Assembly (NCBI GenBank): GCA_002392765.1
Contig: DGHT01000022.1
Coordinates: forward strand, 1,324 to 65,323
Direction of reading: 5' to 3'
Length of the DNA: 64,000 nt
DNA from: Verrucomicrobia bacterium UBA3841
Lineage (GTDB): Bacteria; Verrucomicrobiota; Kiritimatiellia; RFP12; UBA1067
The position numbers and the translations under genes are program-made. How positions within the stretch are numbered: position 1 is the first letter of the stretch; the number at the start of each line of letters is the position of its first letter. Under the pieces are notes generated by a model. It saw only the letters and a program-made list of their open reading frames with translations, was not told the origin of the DNA and searched no databases. Positions 10,848 through 60,502 of the stretch are shown piece after piece.

Positions 10848-13055
10848 TTAGTCAATAAAATCGTCATGCGGTATCAGAGGCTCCTCGCCTTCGTCGAGGT
10901 CGCCTATGTCAGCGCCCTCTTCGCCCGGCACGTCGTCCGGATCGAGCGTGACGTCCGCGCCTTCGACTCCCGCAAGCTCGCCGCGCTGCCGCTCTTCGAG
11001 TTCCCGGCGCTCCACCGGATCCTCGACCCCGAGCGCGGCGAGATTCGCCGCCGCGGCCTCGTTGCGCTCCTTGAGACGCGCCCTGACAACCGGCTCGAGC
11101 TTCGCCTTGGCGTCCGCGAGCGCCGCGCTGCGAAGACCCAGCTGCTCCTGGAGCGCCGCAACGTCCGCGTCCGCATCGGCGCGAACCGCCGGAATCGACT
11201 TTGCAACCCCGAGGAAACGCCCTTGCAGGTCGCATACATACGCCTTGCCGCAGTCCATCGGATTGACCCAGACATGCAGCTTCATCCCCCGCGGAAGCGG
11301 CTTGCCGTCGATGATCGCGGCAACGACATACCTCTCGCCCGTCTCGGCATCGCGCACCGTCACCGTCAGTTTGTCGCCGACCGTCCCAATATGCGCCAGC
11401 TCCTTTCCCAGGATCATCGGAGCGAACGCCGGCGAGACGCTCTCGAGCTTCGCGGCCTTCGTCGCGCTCGACCACGCCTCCGCCGGACTCATCCGGCGCT
11501 CGCGGTACATCGCCGCGCCGGACGCGACAAGCGCCCTGACCTGCGCGGCCCTCTCGGGCGGGAGCGCCGCCATGCGCGGCATCGCCGTCCAGTGCGGCAT
11601 ACCGGCAACCTGCATTTCCCCGACCATAAACCCGCACTCCTCCCAGCCCTCCAGCTGGTGCTCCGTCCGCTCGTCCATGCGCCTGTGCGCATCATCGACC
11701 GCGACCGCGAACGCGCGCCACGTCGGGAAGTTGAACCGCAACCCGCTCCCCGGCGTCGCCGGAAGCGCTTCCGCCAGCCTCATAAGCGCCGCGTCCTCGC
11801 GCACCATGCCGATCGTCTCCTCGGGCTGGACGCCCCGCCCGCCGCCGATGTTGCCGAAGATTGCCGCGTCGGTGTAGTTTTTGAGCGTCGCATGCATCTG
11901 CTCTATCATCCCCTTGTGCCGCGGGTTGCCGTGGTGCTGCACGTCCGGCAGTCCCTTCGCAAGCGGCTCGGTTATAATCGAGCCCGCCCGGAATACAACC
12001 GGCTTGCGCCCCGCGCCCTCGCGTACCGCGTTGATCGCGGCGAGCGCCGCGCCGAACGTGTCGTCCGCCGACGCCGTACCGTGCTCGCCCTTGATTACGC
12101 AACCACCCTCCGGCACGCCGACTACACAAAGCAGATAATGGTATAGATACCTCACCCACGCGCTTTTCAGCGTCTTCCTGGTGCCGTCCTCCGCCTCGAC
12201 AACCGGCTTGGCAAGATGGCATATCACATGCCCCGTGAGACGGTCCATCGCCGCGAACTCGACGACCCGCTGCGGCTTCGCGTTCCCGCCGAAGATCACC
12301 ATGTGCTCGTACCACATGTCGTCCACCTCGACGACCTGGCACGGCAGGAGCCCGACGCGCGTCATCCTCACCGTCGGCAGGAAGTCTATCTTCGCCTGCC
12401 CAAGCCCGATCCGCGCCGCCTCTAGCGAGCATTTGTCGGGCTTTAGCGACATCAGGTTCCGGAGCGACCATCCGGGCGGAGGGTTGCGCTCCGACCAAGG
12501 ACACGGCTCGCCCTCAGCCGGACGGTAGCCGTGCACGTTGAAATAGATGTCCTGCCATTTGCCGAACCCGGGTATGGTGTCGCCGGTGGCGAGATCCCTC
12601 ATCAGTTTCACCCAGGCCGGCTTTACCTTCCGCTTGCACGAGAGGACCCGCGCGTGCCAGTCGGCCATGAAGGCATCGTTGAACGCGAGACCGTGGCCGG
12701 ATACACGGTTGGCGATTCTCATGTCGACGGCGCCCCAGACATCGACGACAACGGTCATCCTGCCGTTGCGGGATTCCTCCCTGAATACCCTGGCGCATTT
12801 CCGGTAGAGGCTCTTGAGCGATATGCCGCCGATCCCCAGCCGGTCGAGCCGCGCGGCGATCTCGTCGGCGCACCGCGCCTTGTCGGCGGAGAGCCGGAAT
12901 ACGTTGAGCGCGTCGACGAGCGACAGAGTGCGCCGCACTTCGTCACCGGGCAAGAGTTCGAACAGCCGGTCGATGTCGGCCTTCGGAATCAACGGCTTGC
13001 CTCTGCCGGAGTCTTCCGGCAGCGGCGCGGCCGGGGCTGCAATCAGTGTTCCCAT
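10848..13055 (-). CDS. MuA-like DDE transposase
   Basis: 735 aa with an rve-like core (..VVEVDDMWYEH.., ..SADD.., ..HKGMIEQMHATLKNY). Start MGTLIAAP at 13055 after AAGGAGA. Confidence 0.8.
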   Translation of the reverse strand: MGTLIAAPAAPLPEDSGRGKPLIPKADIDRLFELLPGDEVRRTLSLVDALNVFRLSADKARCADEIAARLDRLGIGGISLKSLYRKCARVFREESRNGRMTVVVDVWGAVDMRIANRVSGHGLAFNDAFMADWHARVLSCKRKVKPAWVKLMRDLATGDTIPGFGKWQDIYFNVHGYRPAEGEPCPWSERNPPPGWSLRNLMSLKPDKCSLEAARIGLGQAKIDFLPTVRMTRVGLLPCQVVEVDDMWYEHMVIFGGNAKPQRVVEFAAMDRLTGHVICHLAKPVVEAEDGTRKTLKSAWVRYLYHYLLCVVGVPEGGCVIKGEHGTASADDTFGAALAAINAVREGAGRKPVVFRAGSIITEPLAKGLPDVQHHGNPRHKGMIEQMHATLKNYTDAAIFGNIGGGRGVQPEETIGMVREDAALMRLAEALPATPGSGLRFNFPTWRAFAVAVDDAHRRMDERTEHQLEGWEECGFMVGEMQVAGMPHWTAMPRMAALPPERAAQVRALVASGAAMYRERRMSPAEAWSSATKAAKLESVSPAFAPMILGKELAHIGTVGDKLTVTVRDAETGERYVVAAIIDGKPLPRGMKLHVWVNPMDCGKAYVCDLQGRFLGVAKSIPAVRADADADVAALQEQLGLRSAALADAKAKLEPVVRARLKERNEAAAANLAALGVEDPVERRELEERQRGELAGVEGADVTLDPDDVPGEEGADIGDLDEGEEPLIPHDDFID

Positions 13056-13086
13056 TTCTGTTTCTCCTTGTCTTGTGGTTTGTGGA

Positions 13087-13812
13087 TTAGACCTTTTCAA
13101 GTCGTTGCAGCGCCGCTTCGGCGTCGCTGCAAAGCGACTTCAGGATGCTGTGCGCCTCGGCGAGCTCGACGAGGTCGAGATGGTCGATGACGTGGTGGTC
13201 GCGCTGCGCATCCTGGAGCGGACGCAGATGGTCGCGGACCGTCGCCCATGCAGACGACGCCGTCTCGGCCACCTTGTCGAGCTCTACCATCTCCGCTTTG
13301 CCCGATGCCTCGCCCTTCGGCTTGCGGCCCTGGCCGCGACCAGGGCCGCCCCAGCTGTTGCCGTCTTCGTTCTTAATGCGCTTGACGATGCCGAGGTCGA
13401 TCATCGCCCTCGTCGCGCTCTTGTCTTCCATCCCAACCGTCGCGGCGGAGAGTTCAGTGACTGTCGGCTTTTTCGAGATAGGTATCTCCGCCGCAGTCCT
13501 CATCACACCGACCGTCCTCGTGAAAAACTGTATATACCGGTCGGCGGTGAAGCGCGATATTTGCAGATTTTTGTCGCACCATTCGACCCAGCCTCCGTAG
13601 CCGATGGCCTGCTTCTGCTTGGCGAGTTCCCACCCGGCAAGTATCAGATGGGCAAGCGCCTGGCGGCCGTGGTGCTGCGCCATGCCGACGTGGTAGTTGA
13701 TGCGCTCGCCTGGCGTGTTGTAGTCCGGCTCATTGATGTCGCCCAGCGGCGGCAGTCCTTCCGGCGCGATCGGAGCGACGGGAGCAGGGAGATACTTCTT
13801 TGACTTTTTCAT
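13087..13812 (-). CDS. DUF3102-family protein
   Basis: ..LILAGWELAKQKQAIGYGGWVEWCDKNLQISRFTADRYIQFF.. matches the DUF3102 core pattern (G..L...K......G.W..W......S..TA..YM). Confidence 0.6.
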   Translation of the reverse strand: MKKSKKYLPAPVAPIAPEGLPPLGDINEPDYNTPGERINYHVGMAQHHGRQALAHLILAGWELAKQKQAIGYGGWVEWCDKNLQISRFTADRYIQFFTRTVGVMRTAAEIPISKKPTVTELSAATVGMEDKSATRAMIDLGIVKRIKNEDGNSWGGPGRGQGRKPKGEASGKAEMVELDKVAETASSAWATVRDHLRPLQDAQRDHHVIDHLDLVELAEAHSILKSLCSDAEAALQRLEKV

Positions 13813-17493: not shown

Positions 17494-17616
17494 ATTGGCG
17501 TCTTGACCGATCATTGGTCCTCCTGAATGTGTATGGAAAGCAAGCCGCGTCCGGCGGTAGCTCGCGGAAGGTCTCGAACCCCGCGAACCGGACACCCCGA
17601 ACGGGGGTTGAAGCGA

Positions 17617-17651
17617 ATGTAAAATGTAAAGTGTAAAATGTAAAATGTGAG
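17617..17651. repeat. Heptamer array RTGTAAA x4-5 abutting the first late start codon
   Basis: atgtaaa atgtaaa gtgtaaa atgtaaa atgtgag, then ATG at 17652. Confidence 0.9.
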
Positions 17652-18107
17652 ATGGTGGAAACAACGACTATAGACGCGCTGCTGAATGTCGCGGTCAGAT
17701 ATGAACTCTACGGCGTAGATTTCATCCGGGATTTCGACTACGCCACGCTCTGCCGCGAATACAACGGCATCGGCCCGGAATGGGCGGGCGCTCCGATCCG
17801 CGAAAAGACTACGAAGTGGTTCTCCCTCTTCGAGCCCGCGGCGCTTATCCACGACATGCGCAACTACATGTCGGATGGCCGCAAGGAGGCATTCGACGCG
17901 GCGAACCTGGAGTTCCTCGCGAACTGTCGCAAGCTTGCAAACGCCGCGTATCCCTGGTACAGCTGGCGCAGATACCGCGCGCGCTTTGTCGCGCATCTCC
18001 TGTACGATTTTGTGGACGGCCCCGGCGGATGGATGGCTTGGCGCGAATGCTGGGAGAAGAGGAAAGAAAGAATACAAGGAGATGGAGCGTCCCGCTCCGT
18101 CGTATAG
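17652..18107 (+). CDS. Hypothetical protein at the endolysin position (YNGIG...HD motif)
   Basis: First late gene. EYNGIGPEW....AALIHDMRNY. The C-terminus is read through the cloverleaf element. No lysozyme, transglycosylase or amidase motif recognised. Confidence 0.5.
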   Translation: MVETTTIDALLNVAVRYELYGVDFIRDFDYATLCREYNGIGPEWAGAPIREKTTKWFSLFEPAALIHDMRNYMSDGRKEAFDAANLEFLANCRKLANAAYPWYSWRRYRARFVAHLLYDFVDGPGGWMAWRECWEKRKERIQGDGASRSVV

Positions 18108-18133
18108 ACGCGGCGGGACGCCGCATCTCCTTG
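18075..18133. repeat. 59-bp cloverleaf palindromic element (family Z), complete copy
   Basis: caaggagatg | gagcg tcc cgctc | cgtc gtata gacg | cggcg gga cgccg | catctccttg: 10-bp terminal stem plus three abutting stem-loops. Paralog at 60444-60502. Confidence 0.9.
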
Positions 18134-19903: not shown

Positions 19904-21349
19904 GTGAACGAAGCCGACACATCATATTTCCTGCCATACCAGGAAGCGTGGATCAACGACGACTCGCCGCTGAAGGTGGCAGAGAAGTCGCGCCGCGTCG
20001 GCTTCACCTACGCGTCGAGCTACCGCATGTTCCAGAAGTGCATGAGGCGCGGCAAGGGCTTCACGCAGTGGGTGAGCTCGCGCGACCGGCTGACGGCGCA
20101 GGAGCTCATACGCGACTACATCGCCATGTGGTGCAAGCTCGCCAACGTCGCCGCCCAGGGACTGACCGGCGAAGACATCCAGGTGATCGACACGGAGAAG
20201 GACATAACCGCCTTTGTCTGCACGTTCCCGAACGGCGCGCGCATCGTCTCGCTCTCCTCGACTCCGGAGGCGTTCGCCGGCAAGGGCGGCGACGTGTTCC
20301 TGGACGAAGTGGATCTGCACCGCGACTCGGGCGCGCTCATCGACATGGCGTATCCCTGCATCATGTGGGGCAACCAGCTTGAGATGGTCAGCGCCTACCG
20401 CGTGGACGGGTCGAAGGACACGCCCTTCGCGAAGCTCGTCGCCGAGGCGAAGAAGGACAACCCGCAGCATGCGTCGCTGCACCGCGTGACGATTCACGAC
20501 GCGGTGGCGCAGGGGCTCGTCGAGAAGATCAACGCGAAGTCGGGCCGCAGCCAGACGCGCGAGGAGTTCCTGCAGCAGACCCGCGCCGGATGCCGCACGC
20601 TCGCCGCATGGGAGTCGCAGTTCGAGTGCAAGGTGCAGGACGCGGGCGGGAAGCTGCTGCCGACGAAGATCCTCGCTCCGTGCGAAATGCCGGCGGAGGA
20701 GATCGCGGCGATCGAGCGCCGCTATCCGGACGCGCCGCGCTTCGCGGGCTTCGACATCGCCCGTCGCCGCCACGCGAGCGCCTGGAGCGAATGGCTGCAG
20801 ATCGGCGTCACATTCTTCCTCGTCAGGCGCGAGACCTTCCACGACATGGAGTTCGAGGCGCAGCGCAAGTTCCTCGAAGCTCAGATGCAGGGCCGCACTT
20901 CCAAGCGCATCACGCGGCTCGCCATGGACGCGACGGGCCTCGGCATGGAGACTGCGGAGTGGGCCGCCAAGAAATGGCCGGGCCGCGTCGACCAGGTGAA
21001 CCTGGAGTCGCACCGCCGCCACGAGATATGCATGATGTTCCAGGACTGGTTCAACACCGCGAACGCGAGGATCCCGGCGGACGCGGTACTTCGCGAGGAC
21101 TACCAGACGCCCGTCCTCAAGACCGCCGCGAACGGCAACGTGCGCGTGTCCGTCCCGGAGTTCGAGAACGACGAGGGCGAGACGTCTCACTGCGACGAGT
21201 TCATGGCGGGGGTGCTGGCGCGCTCCGCCGCCGACGCCGGCGGCGCGGAGCCCGCCATGCAGGCGACGGCGGAGATCGATGACGACGATTTGGGGAACGG
21301 GGAATGGGGAACGGGGAACGGAACCCTTACGAGAAGGAGCTTCATGTGA
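19904..21349 (+). CDS. Terminase large subunit (Mu gp28-like)
   Basis: GTG start at 19904. FLPYQEAWINDDSPLKVAEKSRRVGFTYASS.. N-terminal ATPase pattern. Followed by the portal gene. The C-terminus (LGNGEWGTGNGT) is encoded by a GGGGAAY array. Confidence 0.8.
   Translation: MNEADTSYFLPYQEAWINDDSPLKVAEKSRRVGFTYASSYRMFQKCMRRGKGFTQWVSSRDRLTAQELIRDYIAMWCKLANVAAQGLTGEDIQVIDTEKDITAFVCTFPNGARIVSLSSTPEAFAGKGGDVFLDEVDLHRDSGALIDMAYPCIMWGNQLEMVSAYRVDGSKDTPFAKLVAEAKKDNPQHASLHRVTIHDAVAQGLVEKINAKSGRSQTREEFLQQTRAGCRTLAAWESQFECKVQDAGGKLLPTKILAPCEMPAEEIAAIERRYPDAPRFAGFDIARRRHASAWSEWLQIGVTFFLVRRETFHDMEFEAQRKFLEAQMQGRTSKRITRLAMDATGLGMETAEWAAKKWPGRVDQVNLESHRRHEICMMFQDWFNTANARIPADAVLREDYQTPVLKTAANGNVRVSVPEFENDEGETSHCDEFMAGVLARSAADAGGAEPAMQATAEIDDDDLGNGEWGTGNGTLTRRSFM
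21292..21321. repeat. GGGGAAY heptamer array in the terminase 3' end
   Basis: ggggaacggggaatggggaacggggaacgg, identical 30-mer to 22942-22971. Same family as umuC 1287-1314. Confidence 0.95.
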
Positions 21350-23283
21350 TGAACATCCTAAGCGGCATCAGGCGGTTTTTCTTCCAGAAGGCGTCGAACG
21401 ACTTCGACGCGAACGAGGCGTTCCGCCGCAACCAGCTCAGGTACAACGCGCTGCGCGCGCTCGACCCGGACGTCCTGGTGCGGCACCTCGAGGCGTTCCA
21501 GCGCGGCGACATCTGCGGGCTCGAGCGCGTCATCGACGAGTTCGAGCAGCGCGAGGACAAGATGCGCATCGGCTCGTTCAAGATGGCGGCCGCCGTCTCG
21601 TCCAAGCCGTGGAAGGTGCAGATACGCCAGGGCGAGGAGGAGAACCCGCGCGCCAAGCTGCACCAGGAGCACTTGACGAAATTCTGGAACCGCGTCGAGG
21701 CGACGGACGCCTTCTGCCGCAATAGGAAAGGCGGGCTCAGGCTCCTAGTCAAGCAGATGATGAGCGCGCAGTCGCGCGTCTACTCCGTCCACGACATCTG
21801 CTGGAAGGTCAACGGCGACGGCACATTGAACGCGACGTTCACGCACGTTCCGGCGTGGTGCTTCGAGAACCGCACCGGACGGCTCAGGTACATCAGGAAC
21901 GACTGCGACACCGTCGGCGCGGAGATGCCCGACGGCGAATGGCTCGTCACCGTGGGCGAAGGCGTCGGCGTCGCGGCGGCGGTGATCGCCATGGCCAAGC
22001 GCCTCTCCTGGAACGACTGGCTGCTCTTCTCGGAGAAGTGCGGCATGCCGGTCATCCTGGGCAACACCAACGCGCAGCGCGATACGCCCGCATGGGCGGC
22101 GATGAGCCGCGCCATCCGCGCGATCGCGCCGAAGACCGGGCTTCTCGCCGACACCGGCACGACCCTGAACGCCGTCTCGATGGGCGCGGGCGGACAGAAC
22201 ACATACCGCGAGCTCGTCGACACGGTGGACCGTGCGATATCCGCGCTCTACCGCGGCGGGGACCTCGCCACGCAGTCGAGCGGACCGGACGCCGCGGGCG
22301 TCAACGCCCAGGCGGGCGAGTCGGAGCTGATGGACGACGACGGCTGCAAGATGGTCGCGGAGACGCTGCGCGACCAGGTTGAGAAGTTCGTGATCCGGTT
22401 CGAGCTCGGCGACTTCGAGCCGCTCGCGGAGATCGTCATCAACCCGCCAGCCGACACCGACGACGTCGACCGCGAGATGAAGATCGACACCCACCTCTCC
22501 GGACTCGGCGTGAAGCTGTCGAAGAAGGACGCGCTCGCCCGGTACGGCCGGACGGAGGCGGAGGACGAAAACGACGCCCTTGCCTTGTCGTCGGCACCTG
22601 TGACAGATTCCGATTCGCAGAAACTCACCGCTCAGGACATCGCATCGCTTATCTATCCGCTCAGAGCTGGTGGATATAAAATCTCCCAGCCGGTAGACGA
22701 GAGAGCGACAGGTCTCAAACTGGAGGAAATCACCCCTGGAGATGGAAGTGACGGCAGCAAAAACCAGCTTGCGAACGAGAAGACAGGCAAGACCCCCTTG
22801 CAAAACGACGAGAACCGCTTGCAAAACGCGCCGCGCGTTTCGGACGGACAAGGAGACCCCTCGGGCGAGGACGCGCTTGTAGAGGCTCTAAGCGGCCTGT
22901 TTGAGAAGTCGCTTGCCGAGGCAGCGGCTGACGCCGCCGCCGGGGAACGGGGAATGGGGAACGGGGAACGGGAACCGGTAGGGGCCGACCACCGGTATCC
23001 CCCAGCCGAAGGCTGTCCGCGAAGCGGATGCCCTAGCAGGGGTGCGGCCCAGGAAGAGCTTGCGAACTCCACCGACGCCCAGGGCAACGAGCACGCCGAA
23101 GCCGGATCCAATAACGGTGGCCAGTTCGTCAGCAAGGGTGAGGGCGGCGAAGCCCACACGCCTGAACAAAAGAAACGCATCGACGGCACGATGGCCGTGC
23201 AAACGGTTGTTCCGGACACGAAGCGCAAGACGCTCTTCATAACTTCGACAAGGATTGAAAAGCGAAAGGACGGGCACTTATAG
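21349..23283 (+). CDS. Portal protein (Mu gp29/DUF935-like) with extended C-terminus
   Basis: ATG overlaps the terminase stop and GAGAAGGAG lies upstream. MNILSGIRRFF..FRRNQLRYNALRALDPDVL..FQRGD. About 130 extra C-terminal residues contain repeat-element-encoded sequence. Confidence 0.8.
   Translation: MNILSGIRRFFFQKASNDFDANEAFRRNQLRYNALRALDPDVLVRHLEAFQRGDICGLERVIDEFEQREDKMRIGSFKMAAAVSSKPWKVQIRQGEEENPRAKLHQEHLTKFWNRVEATDAFCRNRKGGLRLLVKQMMSAQSRVYSVHDICWKVNGDGTLNATFTHVPAWCFENRTGRLRYIRNDCDTVGAEMPDGEWLVTVGEGVGVAAAVIAMAKRLSWNDWLLFSEKCGMPVILGNTNAQRDTPAWAAMSRAIRAIAPKTGLLADTGTTLNAVSMGAGGQNTYRELVDTVDRAISALYRGGDLATQSSGPDAAGVNAQAGESELMDDDGCKMVAETLRDQVEKFVIRFELGDFEPLAEIVINPPADTDDVDREMKIDTHLSGLGVKLSKKDALARYGRTEAEDENDALALSSAPVTDSDSQKLTAQDIASLIYPLRAGGYKISQPVDERATGLKLEEITPGDGSDGSKNQLANEKTGKTPLQNDENRLQNAPRVSDGQGDPSGEDALVEALSGLFEKSLAEAAADAAAGERGMGNGEREPVGADHRYPPAEGCPRSGCPSRGAAQEELANSTDAQGNEHAEAGSNNGGQFVSKGEGGEAHTPEQKKRIDGTMAVQTVVPDTKRKTLFITSTRIEKRKDGHL
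22942..23050. repeat. GGGGAAY array plus element X copy, in-frame inside the portal gene
   Basis: 30-mer array 22942-22971, then ggtatccccc-cagcc gaa ggctg-tccgc gaa gcgga-ccct agc aggg (22994-23050). Translated as GERGMGNGERE...YPPAEGCPRSGCPSRGAAQ. Confidence 0.9.
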
Positions 23284-24422: not shown

Positions 24423-24794
24423 ATGAATGCAATCCACCAGAACGGCAAGGCCACGTTCACGGCCGGTGCCGCAATCGCCAAGGGCGAGTTCGTGAAGTTC
24501 TCGTCCGGAAAGGTCGTCAAGGCCTCCGCCGCGACCGACGTCTGCATCGGCGTCGCGCTCGATTCGGCGGCAGCCGACGGCGACATCATCCCCGTGCAGC
24601 TCCTCTCGAGCGGCGACACCGCCCTCGTCAAGGCGGGCGGTGCGGTCGCGCAGGGCGGCACGGTCTCGTGCCTCGGCACGACCGTCTCCACGGCCGGCGC
24701 GCTCCAGTACGGCATCGCGCTCGAGGCGGCCACCGCCTCCGGCCAGATCATCAACTGCATCGTCGGACTCCCGGCGGTCATCAAGATCAGCTAA
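24423..24794 (+). CDS. DUF2190-like capsid decoration/cement protein
   Basis: FTAGAAIAKGEFVKFSSGKVVKASAATDVCIGVALDSAAADGDIIPVQL. Directly upstream of the capsid gene. Confidence 0.65.
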   Translation: MNAIHQNGKATFTAGAAIAKGEFVKFSSGKVVKASAATDVCIGVALDSAAADGDIIPVQLLSSGDTALVKAGGAVAQGGTVSCLGTTVSTAGALQYGIALEAATASGQIINCIVGLPAVIKIS

Positions 24795-24819
24795 GTTGAA
24801 ACCCAAGAAAGGCAATCAA

Positions 24820-25800
24820 ATGAACATGAATCCGTTCAACATTCTCGCATCCGGCACGGCGGCGAAGCCCGGCCAGGTGTTTCTCGCCAACGAGGGCGCG
24901 GTGGACAACCAGTTCCTCTCCGAGGCGCTCACGCAGTACTCCGTCGGCTGGACGTCGCCGGACGGCAAGCTCGAGGCGCTCCTCCAGACGCTCACCGGCG
25001 CGCCGGTCGTCGTCCCGAAGCGCTTCAGCTTCAAGAAGATGAACAACGCCAAGGCGTTCGCCGCCGTCGAGAACGACGAGGACGTGCGCGCGATCGGCGC
25101 GGACTTCAAGCGCGTGACCGTCGGGGGCTCGACCGTCGACGCGCACACGGTCTCGAAGGGCCTGACGCTCCGCATCGACCGCGACGAGCTCAACGACAAC
25201 CCGCAGGCCGAGCAGGACGCAGTCGCCTACCTGAAGACGATCCTCCTCCGCGGCGAGATCATCCGCGCGTTCGCCGGTCTCAACGGCGCGGCGACGGGCG
25301 GCAAGGCCATCACCGCGACCTGGACGGCAGCCGCCAAGGCCGACGCCGACGCGGAGATCCTCGCGCACCTTCAGACGCTCGCCGACGACTCCGGGCTTCT
25401 CCCGAACCGCGTCTTCTTCGGCGCGACGGCGTTCGCGAAGCGCTTCACCACGATGCGCGCCTCCGCCGCGGTCGCCGTCTCGAACGGCGCGGGCCTGACG
25501 CCCGAGCAGCTCGCGGGCCTCTACGCCGTGGACACGGTGAACGTGTGCAACGAGCGCTACCAGACCGGCAGCGGCAAGGCGACGCTCGTCTCCAACAACG
25601 TCGTGCTCCTGTTCAACGCGCAGGGAAGCGGCGTGAAGGACGACCCGTCGAACATCAAGCGGTTCGTCACGAAGGTGAACGGCCAGGACTTCGCGGTGTT
25701 CCGCGAGGAGAAGGCGGCGGGCGTCGACGTCACGGTGGCGCACCAGTCGCTCATCGCGATCACGTCCGGCCTCGGCATCGGCAAGATCACCGTCTCGTAA
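24820..25800 (+). CDS. Major capsid protein
   Basis: 326 aa after the protease and decoration genes. Start MNMNPFNIL at 24820. Followed by a very long hairpin. Confidence 0.7.
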   Translation: MNMNPFNILASGTAAKPGQVFLANEGAVDNQFLSEALTQYSVGWTSPDGKLEALLQTLTGAPVVVPKRFSFKKMNNAKAFAAVENDEDVRAIGADFKRVTVGGSTVDAHTVSKGLTLRIDRDELNDNPQAEQDAVAYLKTILLRGEIIRAFAGLNGAATGGKAITATWTAAAKADADAEILAHLQTLADDSGLLPNRVFFGATAFAKRFTTMRASAAVAVSNGAGLTPEQLAGLYAVDTVNVCNERYQTGSGKATLVSNNVVLLFNAQGSGVKDDPSNIKRFVTKVNGQDFAVFREEKAAGVDVTVAHQSLIAITSGLGIGKITVS

Positions 25801-25802
25801 GA

Positions 25803-25895
25803 AGTTGAAAGGTTGAAAAGTTGAATAGTTGAGAAGTTGAACAGAGGCAAGAACCTTTCAACCTTTTAACCTTTCAACTTTTCAACTTTTCAACC
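25803..25895. repeat. Long hairpin whose arms are tandem 8-mers (GTTGAAAN x5 / NTTTCAAC x5)
   Basis: agttgaaaggttgaaaagttgaatagttgagaagttgaac - agaggcaagaa - cctttcaaccttttaacctttcaacttttcaacttttcaacc, immediately after the capsid stop. Confidence 0.9.
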
Positions 25896-25899
25896 TGGG

Positions 25900-26361
25900 A
25901 TGGAGCGAAGCGACATGAACTGGAGAGCAGTTGACGAAAACGACCTCGCGGCGACGACCTCGCAGGGCGAGATCGACGCATTCCGCCAGGACGCCTCGCT
26001 CGACGGCTCCGATCCCGTGGCGCGGCTCCTTAAGCGCACCGTCGCGATGGTTCGCGGCTACATCGCCACGAACGGCAAGGTGCGCCGCATGGGGCCCTCG
26101 GGGACTCTCCCCGAGAGCCTCATATCCCCCGCGATGGACTACGCCGCGGCGGACGTCCTCAAGCGACTCGCCGTGCCGCTCAACGACGACCGGCGCAAGG
26201 CGCGCGAGCGCGCGGAGGACCTCTTCAAGGACGTCGCGGCGGGGAAGTACACTCCGGAGAGCGACGACGCCGACGACACCGCGTCTACCGACGGTCCGGC
26301 GATCGAAGTAGTCTGCACCGTCCGCGACCGCGTGAGCGCGGCAAAACTGGAGGGACTGTGA
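25900..26361 (+). CDS. Head-tail adaptor, Mu gp36/DUF1320-like
   Basis: 153 aa after the capsid gene. ..EIDAFRQDA...RTVAMVRGYI..LPESLISPAMDYAAADVLKRL.. resembles the DUF1320 pattern. Confidence 0.45.
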   Translation: MERSDMNWRAVDENDLAATTSQGEIDAFRQDASLDGSDPVARLLKRTVAMVRGYIATNGKVRRMGPSGTLPESLISPAMDYAAADVLKRLAVPLNDDRRKARERAEDLFKDVAAGKYTPESDDADDTASTDGPAIEVVCTVRDRVSAAKLEGL

Positions 26362-27659
26362 AAATATCCAATGTGAAAATGTTGCCAATATCCAGTTCCA
26401 ATTCCAATTGGAAACTGGCAACATTGGTACTGGCAACAATGGCAACGATGGCAACATTCGCAAAGACCTTCGACGTCGACATCTCGACCGGGCGGCCCGC
26501 CGCGTCGAACGAGGCATACTACCACGGCGAGACGATAGAGTTCCGCGCCGTCCGCGGCAGATCCGTCGTCACCAACGTCGAGTACAGCTGCGTCTGGTAC
26601 ACGACAAACAACTCGTCCTCCGTAGCCTCCGGCGAAGGAGGATGGTGGAAGACCGACGGGCTTGTCTTTCACCCAAGCAACGACGTCGGCGCGGCGAGCT
26701 ACAGGTTTTTCATGGAGGGCCGGGACGAAATCGGCCGCGACTGGCACGCGAACGGGCTTCTCCGGCTCCTGGATTCTCCGGGGTTCGCGCCCAATGCGCT
26801 CGAGCTGCCCGTAAAGACGATCGACTTCGCCGCGGTCCAGGCAGCGAACGCGCCCTGGATCGAGACGGAGGCGGACCCCACCGTGCCCGGCTGGGCGAAA
26901 TCGGAAGCGCAACCGCTGCCGCCCGACTACGAGACAGTCTCCAACCGCGCGATGAATGCCGCGCTTGCCGCGGACACCTGCACCAAGGCGCAGCTGGACG
27001 CGCGAATCCGGGCTATACTCGCGACCAACACCTACAACCTGGCGGCTAATGCCGGGTACTATCTCGTTGTCCGCGACCTTGCCGTCGCTTTCGGCGCGAC
27101 CGTCACGAACGACCCATACGCCATCCCGCCAGCCCCCGCGCCGTCGCCGGAGCCTGCGCCGTCCATCCAGACGCGGCGGATTGCGATGTTCATCATTCCC
27201 GTCAACTCCGAGACGAACGGAATTTTCTGCGGCTTCGAACTCAAGGCCTCGACGAACAATTTCTCGCACGCGGCGGACGAAGCGGCCCGGTTGCAATACT
27301 ACGCCCAATCCGAAATCGCCGACACGGGCATGGAGGGTACGAACATCTGGGACCGCATCCGCATCTATACCGGCACGTCGCACGGCACGGATGACGTCCG
27401 CGCCTACACGCGCATACCGAACACCATCGAATGGCCCTGGCCGCTGACGAGCGTTGTCGCGCTAGTCGATGCATCGTGCCTGGTGCGCCATCCGTCCGGC
27501 GATTGGCTGCGCGAGGACAACGAGGAAATCGTCTGGTGCTACCTGCGCAACCGCGCGCTCTCGCCGCCCTACGAGCGGGAATCCGGCACGGCACACGGCC
27601 TCTGGCGCCCGATCGCTCCCGTCAGATGGTACAAGGAGTTGCCCCCATGGGCGCGGTAG
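26358..27659 (+). CDS. Hypothetical protein (start uncertain; possible Ig-like N-domain)
   Basis: The 5' end is built from an inverted repeat and a 9-mer array (LATLVLATMATMATFA). Alternative ATGs at 26379, 26439 and 26448. Confidence 0.5.
   Translation: MKISNVKMLPISSSNSNWKLATLVLATMATMATFAKTFDVDISTGRPAASNEAYYHGETIEFRAVRGRSVVTNVEYSCVWYTTNNSSSVASGEGGWWKTDGLVFHPSNDVGAASYRFFMEGRDEIGRDWHANGLLRLLDSPGFAPNALELPVKTIDFAAVQAANAPWIETEADPTVPGWAKSEAQPLPPDYETVSNRAMNAALAADTCTKAQLDARIRAILATNTYNLAANAGYYLVVRDLAVAFGATVTNDPYAIPPAPAPSPEPAPSIQTRRIAMFIIPVNSETNGIFCGFELKASTNNFSHAADEAARLQYYAQSEIADTGMEGTNIWDRIRIYTGTSHGTDDVRAYTRIPNTIEWPWPLTSVVALVDASCLVRHPSGDWLREDNEEIVWCYLRNRALSPPYERESGTAHGLWRPIAPVRWYKELPPWAR
26378..26457. 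repeat. Inverted repeat plus 9-mer array TGGCAACNN x3
   Basis: aatgttgcca (26378-87) pairs with tggcaacatt (26416-25) around a ttccaattggaa palindrome. Then tggcaacaa tggcaacga tggcaacat (26431-57). Confidence 0.8.
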
Positions 27660-28733: not shown

Positions 28734-28824
28734 GTGTAAAGTGTAAAAAGGGAAAAGGAAAAGTGAAGGAATAATAGAAATGAAACCCATCCGCAACTTT
28801 ACACTTTACACTTTACATTTCACA
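28734..28824. repeat. Hairpin with heptamer arms (GTGTAAA x2 ... CTTTACA x4) enclosing a start codon
   Basis: gtgtaaagtgtaaa (28734-47) and ctttacactttacactttacatttcaca (28797-824). The ATG of the next ORF (28780) lies in the loop. Confidence 0.85.
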
Positions 28825-29388
28825 CTCTCTTGCGCGGCGCTGGCGGCGGCACGCGAGAAGGTAGAGCCTGCGACACCCGCGCGGGCCCCCGCGTCCGAAA
28901 CCCCGGCCGCCGGGGAAATTTCGCGGATGGGCGGGGAAATCACCCGGGCCGCCGGGTTTTACACCCGGGCCGCCGGGTTTTCTTCCCCGGCCGCCGGGAA
29001 CGCCGAAAGCGTCCTCGCCGCGGCGTTTGCGTCGGCGAACGCGGCGGATATTCCGGCAATCCTCGCCGCGGCGTTTGCGTCGGCGAACGCGGCGGATATT
29101 CCGGCTATCCTCGCCGCGCTTCCGGCGGACATGCTGGATTCCGCCGCGCCGGAAATTGCCGCGACGCTGTACGCGGCGCTACTCAAATCTGCCGCGCCCA
29201 GCCTCTCGCCTGCCGCGCTTGCCGACGCAAAACGCGAGTGGTACGAGCGATTTGCCGCGGACGGCGGCTCGCGCGCAAGTTGGATTCTGCGGCGCGCCAA
29301 GACGCTTGCGGAGCGCGGCGAATCGACGGACGCTCTGCGCGCGGCGTTTTTGTCGACGCTCGAGCGTTGGATGCAAGAGGAGGATTGA
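28780..29388 (+). CDS. Hypothetical Ala-rich protein with internal tandem duplication
   Basis: Contains LAAAFASANAADIPAI x2 and RAAGF x2. Confidence 0.45.
   Translation: MKPIRNFTLYTLHFTLSCAALAAAREKVEPATPARAPASETPAAGEISRMGGEITRAAGFYTRAAGFSSPAAGNAESVLAAAFASANAADIPAILAAAFASANAADIPAILAALPADMLDSAAPEIAATLYAALLKSAAPSLSPAALADAKREWYERFAADGGSRASWILRRAKTLAERGESTDALRAAFLSTLERWMQEED
29013..29119. repeat. 48-bp tandem duplication (about 2.2 copies)
   Basis: cctcgccgcggcgtttgcgtcggcgaacgcggcggatattccggcWat at 29013 and 29061, with a partial third copy. Confidence 0.9.
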
Positions 29389-32853: not shown

Positions 32854-33282
32854 ATGAAGATCAAGGAATTCCAGGAAGCGATAGCCGACGAGTTGAACGG
32901 CATTGACGAGCTTGTTCAGGGCGGATGCAAGGCATTTGCAGAGGACTCCCGGGAAGTCTACAAGGGGTCCGACCAGCACGTCCAAAGCGGGAAGGTCGCC
33001 ATTGTCGTGGTGACGCCGGAGATGACAAGAAACGGCTGCTCGTCCGATGCCATTTCGGCGGAAACGCAGCTGCTTATCCAGTGCAGCGAAAAGCCAATGG
33101 TGGCGCGCGCCCAGCCGGGCGTCATAACCGCGCTCGACGCGGCGGAGATCGTCATGTACGCGCTTGACGGCTCGCAGTTCTGCTGGCTCGATACGCGGCA
33201 GACGCTCGACCGGCAGGCGGGCGTTCTGACTGCTACAGTCACTTTTGCGACATCGATGTCATTCGAGAAGTGTAAAGTGTAA
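32854..33282 (+). CDS. Hypothetical head-tail joining/tail terminator-position protein
   Basis: 142 aa upstream of the tube gene. Call is by position only. Confidence 0.3.
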   Translation: MKIKEFQEAIADELNGIDELVQGGCKAFAEDSREVYKGSDQHVQSGKVAIVVVTPEMTRNGCSSDAISAETQLLIQCSEKPMVARAQPGVITALDAAEIVMYALDGSQFCWLDTRQTLDRQAGVLTATVTFATSMSFEKCKV

Positions 33283-33320
33283 AATTGCGGTATCAAGGAG
33301 ATGGAGCATCTTGTTCCGTC
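33270..33320. repeat. GTGTAAA x2 plus truncated cloverleaf-family copy
   Basis: gtgtaaagtgtaaa (33270-83), then caaggagatg-gagca tct tgttc-cgtc.. (33294-) without the right terminal repeat. Confidence 0.8.
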
Positions 33321-36048: not shown

Positions 36049-36080
36049 CCTTCAACTTTTCAACCTTTCAACTTTTCAAC
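36049..36080. repeat. 8-mer array YTTTCAAC x4
   Basis: cttcaac ttttcaac ctttcaac ttttcaac. Same family and orientation as the right arm of the 25803-25895 hairpin. Confidence 0.9.
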
Positions 36081-36086
36081 CGTTAA

Positions 36087-39093: not shown

Positions 39094-39200
39094 TGCGGGC
39101 AAAGCGGGGACGGGGAGTTGTGAAATTGTGGCAACTGGGAAAGTCAGCATCCTGCCGGCGGAATCAAGGAGATGGAGCATCTTGCTCCGTCACTGCCGGG
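39089..39200. repeat. Right half of dispersed element Y (plus truncated cloverleaf copy at 39165)
   Basis: gcgtttgcgggcaaagcggggacggggagttgtgaaattgtggcaactgggaaagtcagcatcctgccggcggaatcaaggagatggagc.. is near-identical to 60368-60474. Confidence 0.9.
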
Positions 39201-60325: not shown

Positions 60326-60502
60326 TGTGGTATTTTTCTCTCGCAGAGGCGCAGAGTCGCAGAGATGGCGTTTGCGGGCAAAGCGGGGACGGGGAGTTGT
60401 GAAATTGCGGCAACTGGGAAAGTCGGCATCCTGCCGGCGGAATCAAGGAGATGGAGCTTCCAGCTCCGTCTTGCGGACGCGGCAGGATGCCGCATCTCCT
60501 TG
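60326..60502. repeat. Uninterrupted copy of element Y followed by a complete 59-bp cloverleaf element
   Basis: 60326-60370 matches 6552-6589 and 60368-60474 matches 39089-39195. Cloverleaf at 60444-60502: caaggagatg|gagct tcc agctc|cgtc ttgcg gacg|cggca gga tgccg|catctccttg. Confidence 0.9.

Follow-up and report, generated by a model that had tools for sequence, protein, structure and literature searches.

We analysed a 64,000-nt stretch of contig DGHT01000022.1 from Verrucomicrobia bacterium UBA3841 (GenBank assembly GCA_002392765.1); the whole stretch is called the window here. It contains host genes and a resident prophage, and the element in question is a fold-back, or hairpin, of tandem octamers that lies directly after the major capsid gene of this prophage. 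Judging from its sequence, the prophage looks Mu-like. Its transposase (phrog_310) is encoded by a 750-aa open reading frame (ORF) at 10848-13100 on the minus strand. The minus strand carries the early prophage genes and the plus strand, from ~17.6 kb, the late ones, with genes for terminase, portal and head protease upstream of the capsid gene. The capsid junction has the following features.

24640-25800, plus strand: major capsid gene (phrog_1005, E = 2e-10), given as the longest ORF; its true start may be further downstream
25798-25800, plus strand: capsid stop codon TAA
25803-25895, no strand assigned: fold-back with left arm (GTTGAANN)x5, an 11-nt loop and right arm (NNTTCAAC)x5
25915-26361, plus strand: gene after the hairpin, its start revised to ATG 25915 (MNWRAVDENDL)

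The hairpin starts 2 nt downstream of the capsid stop and occupies the whole junction between the two genes. It reads AGTTGAAAG GTTGAAAA GTTGAATA GTTGAGAA GTTGAA - cagaggcaaga - ACCTTTCAAC CTTTTAAC CTTTCAAC TTTTCAAC TTTTCAAC, and its unit belongs to a family written here as GTTGAAAR. As RNA, it is far more stable (-46.3 kcal/mol) than dinucleotide shuffles of itself (-22.8 ± 3.3 kcal/mol; z = -7.15, with 0 of 200 as good), and the minus strand reaches -42.0 kcal/mol (z = -7.3). The best fold makes up only 14% of the ensemble. The original prediction for this DNA, made by reading the letters, had proposed a hairpin of five plus five tandem units right after the capsid stop, whose register-shiftable stem would allow alternative pairings. 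Both proposals are borne out by the folding.

In position, directly after the major capsid cistron, the hairpin resembles an intrinsic terminator or a post-capsid stem-loop of phages. However, an intrinsic terminator has a G+C-rich stem and a U-tract, while the 40-bp stem here is A/U-rich and is followed by CCTGGGATGG, with no U-tract. The hairpin at 25803-25895 was not flagged in a terminator scan, and Rfam gave zero matches across the entire 64-kb window, hairpin included. Unlike a conserved phage cis-regulatory RNA, it matches no Rfam family and is missing from the same site in related phages.

Relatives of the gene after the hairpin begin with MAWRK or MGWRK, which places its start at ATG 25915 and not at 25900. 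In line with this start, the alignment to empty sites (described below) picks up again at 25917. The ATG at 25900 is a false start, similar to an array-derived ATG at 21304. Three metatranscriptomes of the source sample gave no read depth on the phage genes, and other RNA runs contained repeat fragments or the empty-site variant only.

Filled and empty alleles of the capsid junction

In contigs of three further public gut runs (X2 and X3, listed as DNA, and X21, listed as probable RNA), the capsid end and the downstream gene are ~95% identical to those of the window, and position 25793 is joined to 25917 by 29 nt (GAGCTAAAGGAAAGGAACCGCGCCATGTC) without a hairpin. A fourth run has 92 different letters at the junction. 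On the other hand, the right junction of the hairpin is found in an independent sample (X3 record 22, covering 25861-25946). This indicates that both filled and empty alleles exist in nature, and an assembly artefact was rejected as unlikely.

More distant phages were also compared. A relative in IMG/VR with 80% capsid identity (locus L153) has TAG, 16 nt and ATG at the junction and no hairpin, and within 4 kb it has no 7- or 8-nt unit repeated in tandem three or more times. Among 40 genomes, capsid relatives occur in one genome only, at 43-46% identity. Two congener prophages at this level of identity have capsid-junction spacers of ~200 nt, one of them without such an array. Because near-identical phages lack the hairpin, it was inserted recently and did not evolve as a control element of the phage.

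A second site tells of similar turnover. The variable loop of ValS has a GTTGAAAR hairpin in this genome, and (GGGGAAC)x3 at the same place in a genome of the same genus (G003, locus L009). In a DNA alignment, six other congeners have neither unit, and a protein alignment with 25 relatives shows no translated array in any of their loop peptides. Two families were gained independently at this one permissive site.

The capsid hairpin is probably a gene-less fold-back copy of a class resembling the short tandemly repeated repetitive (STRR) and heptamer arrays of other bacteria, recently gained by the resident Mu-like prophage from the repertoire of its host. The original prediction took it instead for a device that sets capsid stoichiometry. 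As an evolved phage regulator, a post-capsid stem-loop would attenuate read-through or stabilise the capsid mRNA, raising the ratio of capsid to minor proteins. Its exact placement in the gap from the capsid stop to the following gene would suit this role, as would the high stability of the sense-strand fold. Three further observations leave room for a local function, and so count against the reading as a host-derived copy. First, the sense strand of the capsid hairpin folds more stably than its antisense strand, which is the case in few of the hairpins. Second, the prophage holds 8 arrays where 2.4 are expected (3.4-fold, P = 0.003). Third, one of the congener prophages (43% identity) also has an array at the capsid junction, a lone (CACTTTTC)x5 arm that abuts the next ATG.

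Nevertheless, we consider a regulator very unlikely. The hairpin is missing in the ~95%-identical phages of three runs and in the 80%-identical relative, the same units occur in host genes and spacers, and neither a U-tract, a terminator call nor an Rfam match marks it. Among 28 hairpins of this kind with defined transcription, the mRNA sense is less stable than the antisense in 20 and more stable in 8, the capsid hairpin included (mean difference of 3.9 kcal/mol, Wilcoxon p = 0.004), which argues against general selection for mRNA structure. The weaker sense folds are consistent with selection against stable transcript structure, or with strand-biased mutation. Finally, such arrays are nearly absent from viruses: the 2.9 million viral contigs of IMG/VR contain one (GTTGAAAR)x3.75 array (L184, IMGVR_UViG_3300031994_004278:5949-5978), which may itself be from another prophage colonised in a host of this kind.

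A genome-wide class of heptamer and octamer arrays

The genome assembly (3.05 Mb in 72 contigs, 59% G+C, 86% complete) was searched with Tandem Repeats Finder for arrays of at least three copies. Periods 7 (193 arrays) and 8 (161) dominate, compared with 12, 59 and 12 arrays of periods 5, 6 and 10, respectively, and merging leaves 338 arrays with units of 7 or 8 bases. The largest families are GGGGAAC (46), GTGTAAA (24), GTTGAAAG (22), GTTGAAAA (20), GTGGAATT (20), GGACTTC (15) and ATGTAAA (14), and the GTTGAAAR family (GTTGAAAG/A) has 42 arrays in the genome. Placed against gene positions from a crude codon-usage gene call, the arrays are distributed as follows.

Inside long, high-scoring read-through ORFs: 164 arrays (49%; random placement 84%)
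Intergenic: 137 arrays (40%; random placement 13.6%)
Overlapping a gene edge: 37 arrays (11%; random placement 2.4%)

The proposal that such hairpins are a design placed at gene boundaries of the late operon therefore stands only in part. They do recur at boundaries, but they are not phage-specific, and half of the arrays genome-wide lie inside genes. There they are read through in frame, as Rickettsia palindromic elements are: whole hairpins are translated within ValS and CarB, and arrays or hairpins are likewise in frame in UmuC, UmuD, terminase and portal. For arrays inside genes, the sense strand is the purine-rich one in 91 and the pyrimidine-rich one in 48. About half of the arrays are thus tolerated as extra protein loops.

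Of 136 intergenic arrays, 19 have their end no more than 15 nt from a start codon, and 31 have their beginning no more than 15 nt from a stop codon. This could mean that the arrays are positively selected host signals, either binding sites of host factors or unstructured translation leaders and spacers at gene borders. The presence of arrays in metatranscriptome contigs would agree with that, and so would a Bacteroidales metagenome-assembled genome (MAG) with long TTCAAC arrays directly upstream of two ATGs. However, half of the arrays are in coding sequence, there is no same-site conservation between congeners, and arrays upstream of starts occur in either orientation (9 vs 7). Selected host signals are therefore an unlikely explanation.

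Most arrays stand alone, and ~30 inverted pairs form fold-backs. The polarity of these pairs is fixed: the G- or purine-rich arm is 5′ in 25 and 3′ in 5 (p = 3e-4). All five exceptions are of the GGACTTC type (GACTTCA and GACTTCT variants), whose core unit has equal numbers of G and C. Units within arrays alternate between two variants, AAAG and AAAA, GGGGAAC and GGGGAAT, or GTGTAAA and ATGTAAA. Copy number per array ranges from 3 to 11. Arrays of three copies, the lowest number detected, are the most numerous (121, compared with 111 of four copies), and four units are the commonest form only among exact GGGGAAC runs.

The variable copy number might also be explained by local slippage, in which arrays would have grown in place from a short seed and acquired the inverted partner by template switching, with no copying between loci. 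Loops and flanks are unrelated between copies, and the compared sites show replacement and not clean insertion, as expected in that case. On the other hand, most arrays come from few unit families, the alternating 16-mer GTTGAAAAGTTGAAAG recurs in many phyla (among the matches listed), polarity is fixed, and a phage arm and a cassette arm share 35 nt including flank bases and the order of unit variants, as detailed below. We regard growth in place as improbable.

At four places (C8:2514, C21:569, C21:14039 and C63:22121), families abut in a recurring order of GGGATGA/GAGGGAA, GTGTAAA and ATTGTGG units. This suggests compound super-arrays copied as blocks.

Longer forms of the class hold a gene. 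PF05635 proteins are four-helix bundles, known as 23S rRNA intervening-sequence proteins and Avd-like, and PF13366 is a GxxExxY nuclease of the PD-(D/E)XK type; both are large protein families with no role known to us. All seven such genes of the genome (six PF05635, two of them hits below the Pfam cut-off, and one PF13366) lie between inverted arrays. The arm units per cassette are ATGTAAA, GGGGAAC, GTGGAATT (twice), GACTTCA, a 9-mer, and CGCAGAGG/CTGAGAG. A PF05635 gene is present in 31 of 41 genomes of the order. When one PF05635 locus was taken from each of 13 genomes, 12 were bracketed within ~100 nt by inverted tandem-array arms, with units that vary per locus. Two proteins that are 71-73% identical to the GGGGAAC-armed PF05635 protein have GGGAAC or GGGAAGA arms, sharing the GGGAA core, and those of 55% identity or less have unrelated arm units.

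A phage arm is linked base for base to one of these cassettes. The arm at 17613-17647, in front of the first late gene, shares all 35 nt with the left arm of the PF05635 cassette at C67:483-517. Four of the matching bases lie outside the array, the unit variants come in the same order, and the string occurs only twice in the genome. This identity is copying and not convergence.

A Y1 (HUH) transposase-like gene (C43:37491-38132) is also associated with arrays. Both of its sides carry a module in direct orientation, which consists of one REP-like hairpin (resembling a repetitive extragenic palindrome, REP), the array (GAAAAGTT/GAAAGGTT)x5 and another such hairpin. From this one locus, an enzyme like the REP-associated tyrosine transposases (RAYT) is a candidate mobiliser of the GTTGAAAR family. 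There are four Y1 hits in the genome, two of them without a nearby array. The REP-like family, CAAGGAGATGCGGCATCTTGCCGCG, has 92 genome copies at five or fewer mismatches, and its stem variants are compensatory (GCGGCA/TGCCGC, GGAGCA/TGCTCC and GCACCA/TGGTGC). These hairpins often form tandem clusters with periods of 35-55 nt and sometimes lie in the loops of array fold-backs.

The GTTGAAAR unit is not confined to this lineage. The exact pattern (GTTGAAAR)x3.75 was found at at least 119 loci, against a chance expectation below 1e-5 matches as estimated from pattern length and collection size. Carriers among the matches listed are Kiritimatiellae rumen MAGs, Lentisphaera, Verrucomicrobia, several Bacteroidota orders, Gastranaerophilales, two Firmicutes lineages, Chloroflexota and Acidobacteria. 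Six of the matches listed are fold-backs, all with the G-rich arm first. In other gut metagenomes, the summed contig depth over the hairpin is ~100- to 1000-fold above its flanks, which means that the GTTGAAAR unit is highly repeated in those communities.

As for genes near GTTGAAAR arrays of foreign loci, PF05635, PF13366 and Y1 were looked for among the matches listed, and locus L104 alone has one (PF05635). At L104:2760-3460, from a Bacteroidales MAG, the PF05635 gene is between two 140-nt TTCAAC-type arrays in direct orientation. Since both arrays end in CTCACCCATGYACGCATT, the array and the start region of the next gene would have been duplicated on insertion. A Verrucomicrobiota MAG (L049:426-560) has a GTTGAAAG fold-back whose loop consists of about ten GGCGGAAG units, so that arrays are nested.

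Relation to known repeats and possible origin

Arrays of heptamers and octamers have been on record for bacteria since 1990, with origin and function unexplained to our knowledge, and a survey of heptameric repeats in 2007 is reportedly that of Mrazek et al. The closest published class to the arrays here is that of the STRR sequences of Calothrix and Nostoc and the heptamer repeats of Xanthomonas. Rehm et al. 2015 (PMC4692102) described dispersed GGGAATC heptamer arrays in Xanthomonas and Nostoc with a four-unit preference and ~70 convergent pairs, read the arrays as G-quadruplex elements, and reported convergent inverted pairs with the G-rich arm first. As cited in that paper, a survey in 2007 had heptameric repeats over-represented among bacterial simple sequence repeats. 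The arrays here are alike in having head-to-tail units of ~7 nt in at least three to four copies, hundreds of dispersed copies per genome, over-representation in non-coding DNA with enrichment in spacers near stops and starts, and convergent stem-loop pairs.

The four-unit mode, however, is found here only in exact GGGGAAC runs. Five further features of the arrays here are not reported in PMC4692102: there are several 7- and 8-nt families, most without G-tracts; about half of the arrays (the 49% in ORFs) are in frame in genes, unlike the published cases; PF05635 and PF13366 genes are bracketed; a prophage is colonised; and the unit is shared between phyla. Our search of the available literature library found no description of a link between arrays and PF05635 or GxxExxY genes, and neither massive in-frame coding occupancy nor unit sharing across phyla was found described there.

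The hairpin could be a G-quadruplex element, a reading put forward for GGGNATC arrays in Xanthomonas and Nostoc. Such repeats form G-quadruplexes in vitro (PMC4692102), and (GGGGAAC)x4, the commonest form of the GGGGAAC family, fits the motif. However, GTTGAAAR, GTGTAAA and GTGGAATT have no G-tracts, so that this reading cannot apply to GTTGAAAR and would leave the capsid hairpin and most families unexplained. A G-quadruplex was rejected for the capsid hairpin for the same lack of G-tracts and has next to no likelihood there.

Other known systems share parts of the picture. REP sequences and bacterial interspersed mosaic elements (BIMEs), together with their Y1 HUH enzymes (RAYT), form 'REPtrons', in which abundant small hairpins lie at gene junctions and a gene sits between repeat copies. 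This genome has a genuine REP-like family and Y1 genes as well. A REP is a single imperfect palindrome of 20-40 nt with a GTAG head, whereas the arms of the capsid hairpin are tandem 8-mers; the bracketed genes here are PF05635 and PF13366, and at the one Y1 gene flanked by GTTGAAAR arrays, these are direct repeats. REPs stabilise upstream mRNA, and by analogy an effect of this kind would be a likely by-product of the arrays here.

Rickettsia palindromic elements are 100-150 bp long, have conserved internal sequence, and stand in frame in protein genes, where they are translated as extra loops. The likeness is in the palindromic repeats in frame in genes, but in the arrays here only the unit is shared while loops and copy numbers vary. 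In 23S rRNA, intervening sequences with a PF05635 ORF (Leptospira, Coxiella) lie in helix 25 or 45, and their long terminal inverted repeats form a stem at which RNase III excises them. The same family is enclosed by long inverted repeats in the gene-bearing form described here, although not in the capsid hairpin itself, and the copies here are not in rRNA (the window is without rRNA).

A mechanism can be proposed for the copying of arms from the host repertoire. A copy of this class consists of 3-10 tandem 7-8-nt units, often as a fold-back in which the G- or purine-rich arm precedes its complement, and the full form carries a PF05635 or PF13366 gene in the loop between two arms. Arm sequence would be copied into tolerated sites, namely the few bases between a stop and the next start, or protein surface loops where only stop-free, in-frame copies survive, rather than grown in place. 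The copying would take place at the DNA level, possibly triggered by a cassette-encoded or Y1 (RAYT-like) nuclease at hairpin or cruciform DNA and followed by repair. Later, copies would drift by slippage and then be lost. The Mu-like prophage would have acquired at least eight arrays in this way, the capsid fold-back replacing a spacer of 16-29 nt. In the late transcript, the 40-bp stem may act incidentally in the manner of REPs, as a 3′ exonuclease barrier or an RNase III site past the capsid cistron, and a by-product effect on late-mRNA stability is possible by this analogy.

Several observations, in addition to the three named with the regulator, weigh against this account or narrow it. 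The loops of GTTGAAAR fold-backs show no relatedness between copies. Array borders and outer flanks have no conserved target motif, and no target-site duplication or direct repeat, so that the arrays are not elements conserved over their full length with target-site duplications, as are Rickettsia palindromic elements or miniature inverted-repeat transposable elements. At the capsid junction and the ValS loop, flanks are replaced rather than cleanly interrupted. No gene-bearing GTTGAAAR cassette was found in the 86%-complete genome, and the only gene flanked by GTTGAAAR arrays is the Y1 transposase, whose arrays are direct and not inverted. Any mobilising enzyme is at candidate level, and we know of no catalytic activity of PF05635 proteins. 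Because loops are unrelated and target-site duplications are absent, the arrays have not moved by classical cut-and-paste or copy-and-paste of a whole element. The data fit repair-linked copying of arms at the DNA level better than whole-element transposition, and slippage alone fits least.

A wider reading is conceivable, though we hold it to be doubtful. STRR-type arrays, in-frame 'palindromic' inserts and orphan PF05635 and PF13366 genes, including the 23S rRNA intervening-sequence protein, would be one cross-phylum class of selfish cassette. Arms would not be products of slippage; a templated process of fixed polarity would install them at breaks or ends of DNA. One example would be the copying of a cassette's 3′ arm, from its transcript or its DNA, onto the two 3′ ends of a break, the Avd-like PF05635 protein serving as specificity factor. 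Truncation would then account for solo arms and short fold-backs, and the prophage would be a natural trap that dates recent events.

Apart from this wider reading, the locus ties arrays to PF05635 and PF13366 genes through a colonised prophage, filled and empty alleles in public metagenomes and the base-for-base link to a cassette. It offers a datable, testable system for the spread of repeats. It also calls for caution in annotation: such hairpins should not be read as terminators or phage regulators, and start codons inside arrays are unreliable, as array-derived ATGs may mislead start calls.

Other arrays and repeats in the window

Arrays and REP-like hairpins other than the capsid hairpin are found in the window as follows.

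488-527, no strand assigned: (TGAGGGA)x5.7, in frame close to the UmuC C-terminus
1285-1367, no strand assigned: fold-back of (GGGGAAC)x4.6 and (TTCCCTC)x4.1, in frame in host umuC (minus strand)
1721-1889, no strand assigned: (GGGATGC)x3.1 (1721-1742) and (CCCTCTT)x4.9 (1856-1889), inverted and 113 nt apart, inside umuD (minus strand)
17613-17651, plus strand: single arm (ATGTAAA/GTGTAAA)x4.7, abutting ATG 17652
18109-18133 (C40:19432-19456), minus strand: REP-like hairpin directly after the first late ORF (17652-18107)
21292-21321, plus strand: (GGGGAAC)x4.3, in-frame C-terminal tail of the large terminase
22941-22972, plus strand: (GGGGAAC)x4.6, in frame within the portal gene, translated ...AGERGMGNGERE...
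26378-26457, plus strand: palindrome with a TGGCAACNN array after it, in the 5′ part of ORF 26358-27659
28734-28826, plus strand: weak fold-back whose left side has GTGTAAA x2 and AAAGGRA units and whose right side has (CTTTACA)x4.4; the loop contains ATG 28780
33268-33318, plus strand: weak array (AAGTGTA)x2.3 (33268-33283), then REP-like hairpin CAAGGAGATGGAGCATCTTGTTCCG (33294-33318), at a gene junction
36049-36081, plus strand: single arm (TTCAACYT)x3.8, of the GTTGAAAR family like the capsid hairpin, ending 6 nt before ATG 36087

Further REP-like copies are at 39165-39189 and 60478-60502. The original prediction had the hairpin design recurring at three places, two of which are upheld by folding: the umuC fold-back at 1287-1366 (-42.0 kcal/mol, z = -4.0), through which the ORF reads, and 26378-26457 (-30.8 kcal/mol, z = -3.45). 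The third, at 28734-28824, is not significant (-19.5 kcal/mol, z = -1.76, with 8 of 200 shuffles equally good). Likewise, two of the proposed single arms are sound (17616-17648 with 4.7 units and 36051-36080 with 3.8 units), and those at 33268-33283 (2.3 units) and 46268 (~2 degenerate units) are weak. The arrays at 21292-21321, 22941-22972, 488-527, 1721-1742 and 1856-1889 had been missed.

Together, umuC and umuD read through five arrays in the window. The IMS domain of UmuC has 171 aa for 147 profile positions in Pfam, making it ~24 residues longer, and the Peptidase_S24 domain of UmuD is ~14 aa longer than its profile. A PDB search with UmuC found nothing at E <= 1e-10. At the terminase and portal GGGGAAC arrays, the related phage contigs are too diverged for a clean empty-site comparison. 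The predicted portal start, ATG 21304, is made by a variant unit, GGGGAAT|G, within the array at 21292-21321.

A different kind of repeat from the 7-8-mers is found in ORF 28780-29388. Its segment at 28900-29118 contains about three copies of a 21-nt repeat, CACCCGGGCCGCCGGGTTTTA, each of which is a GC hairpin, and a 48-nt repeat of 2.2 copies that are 98% identical.

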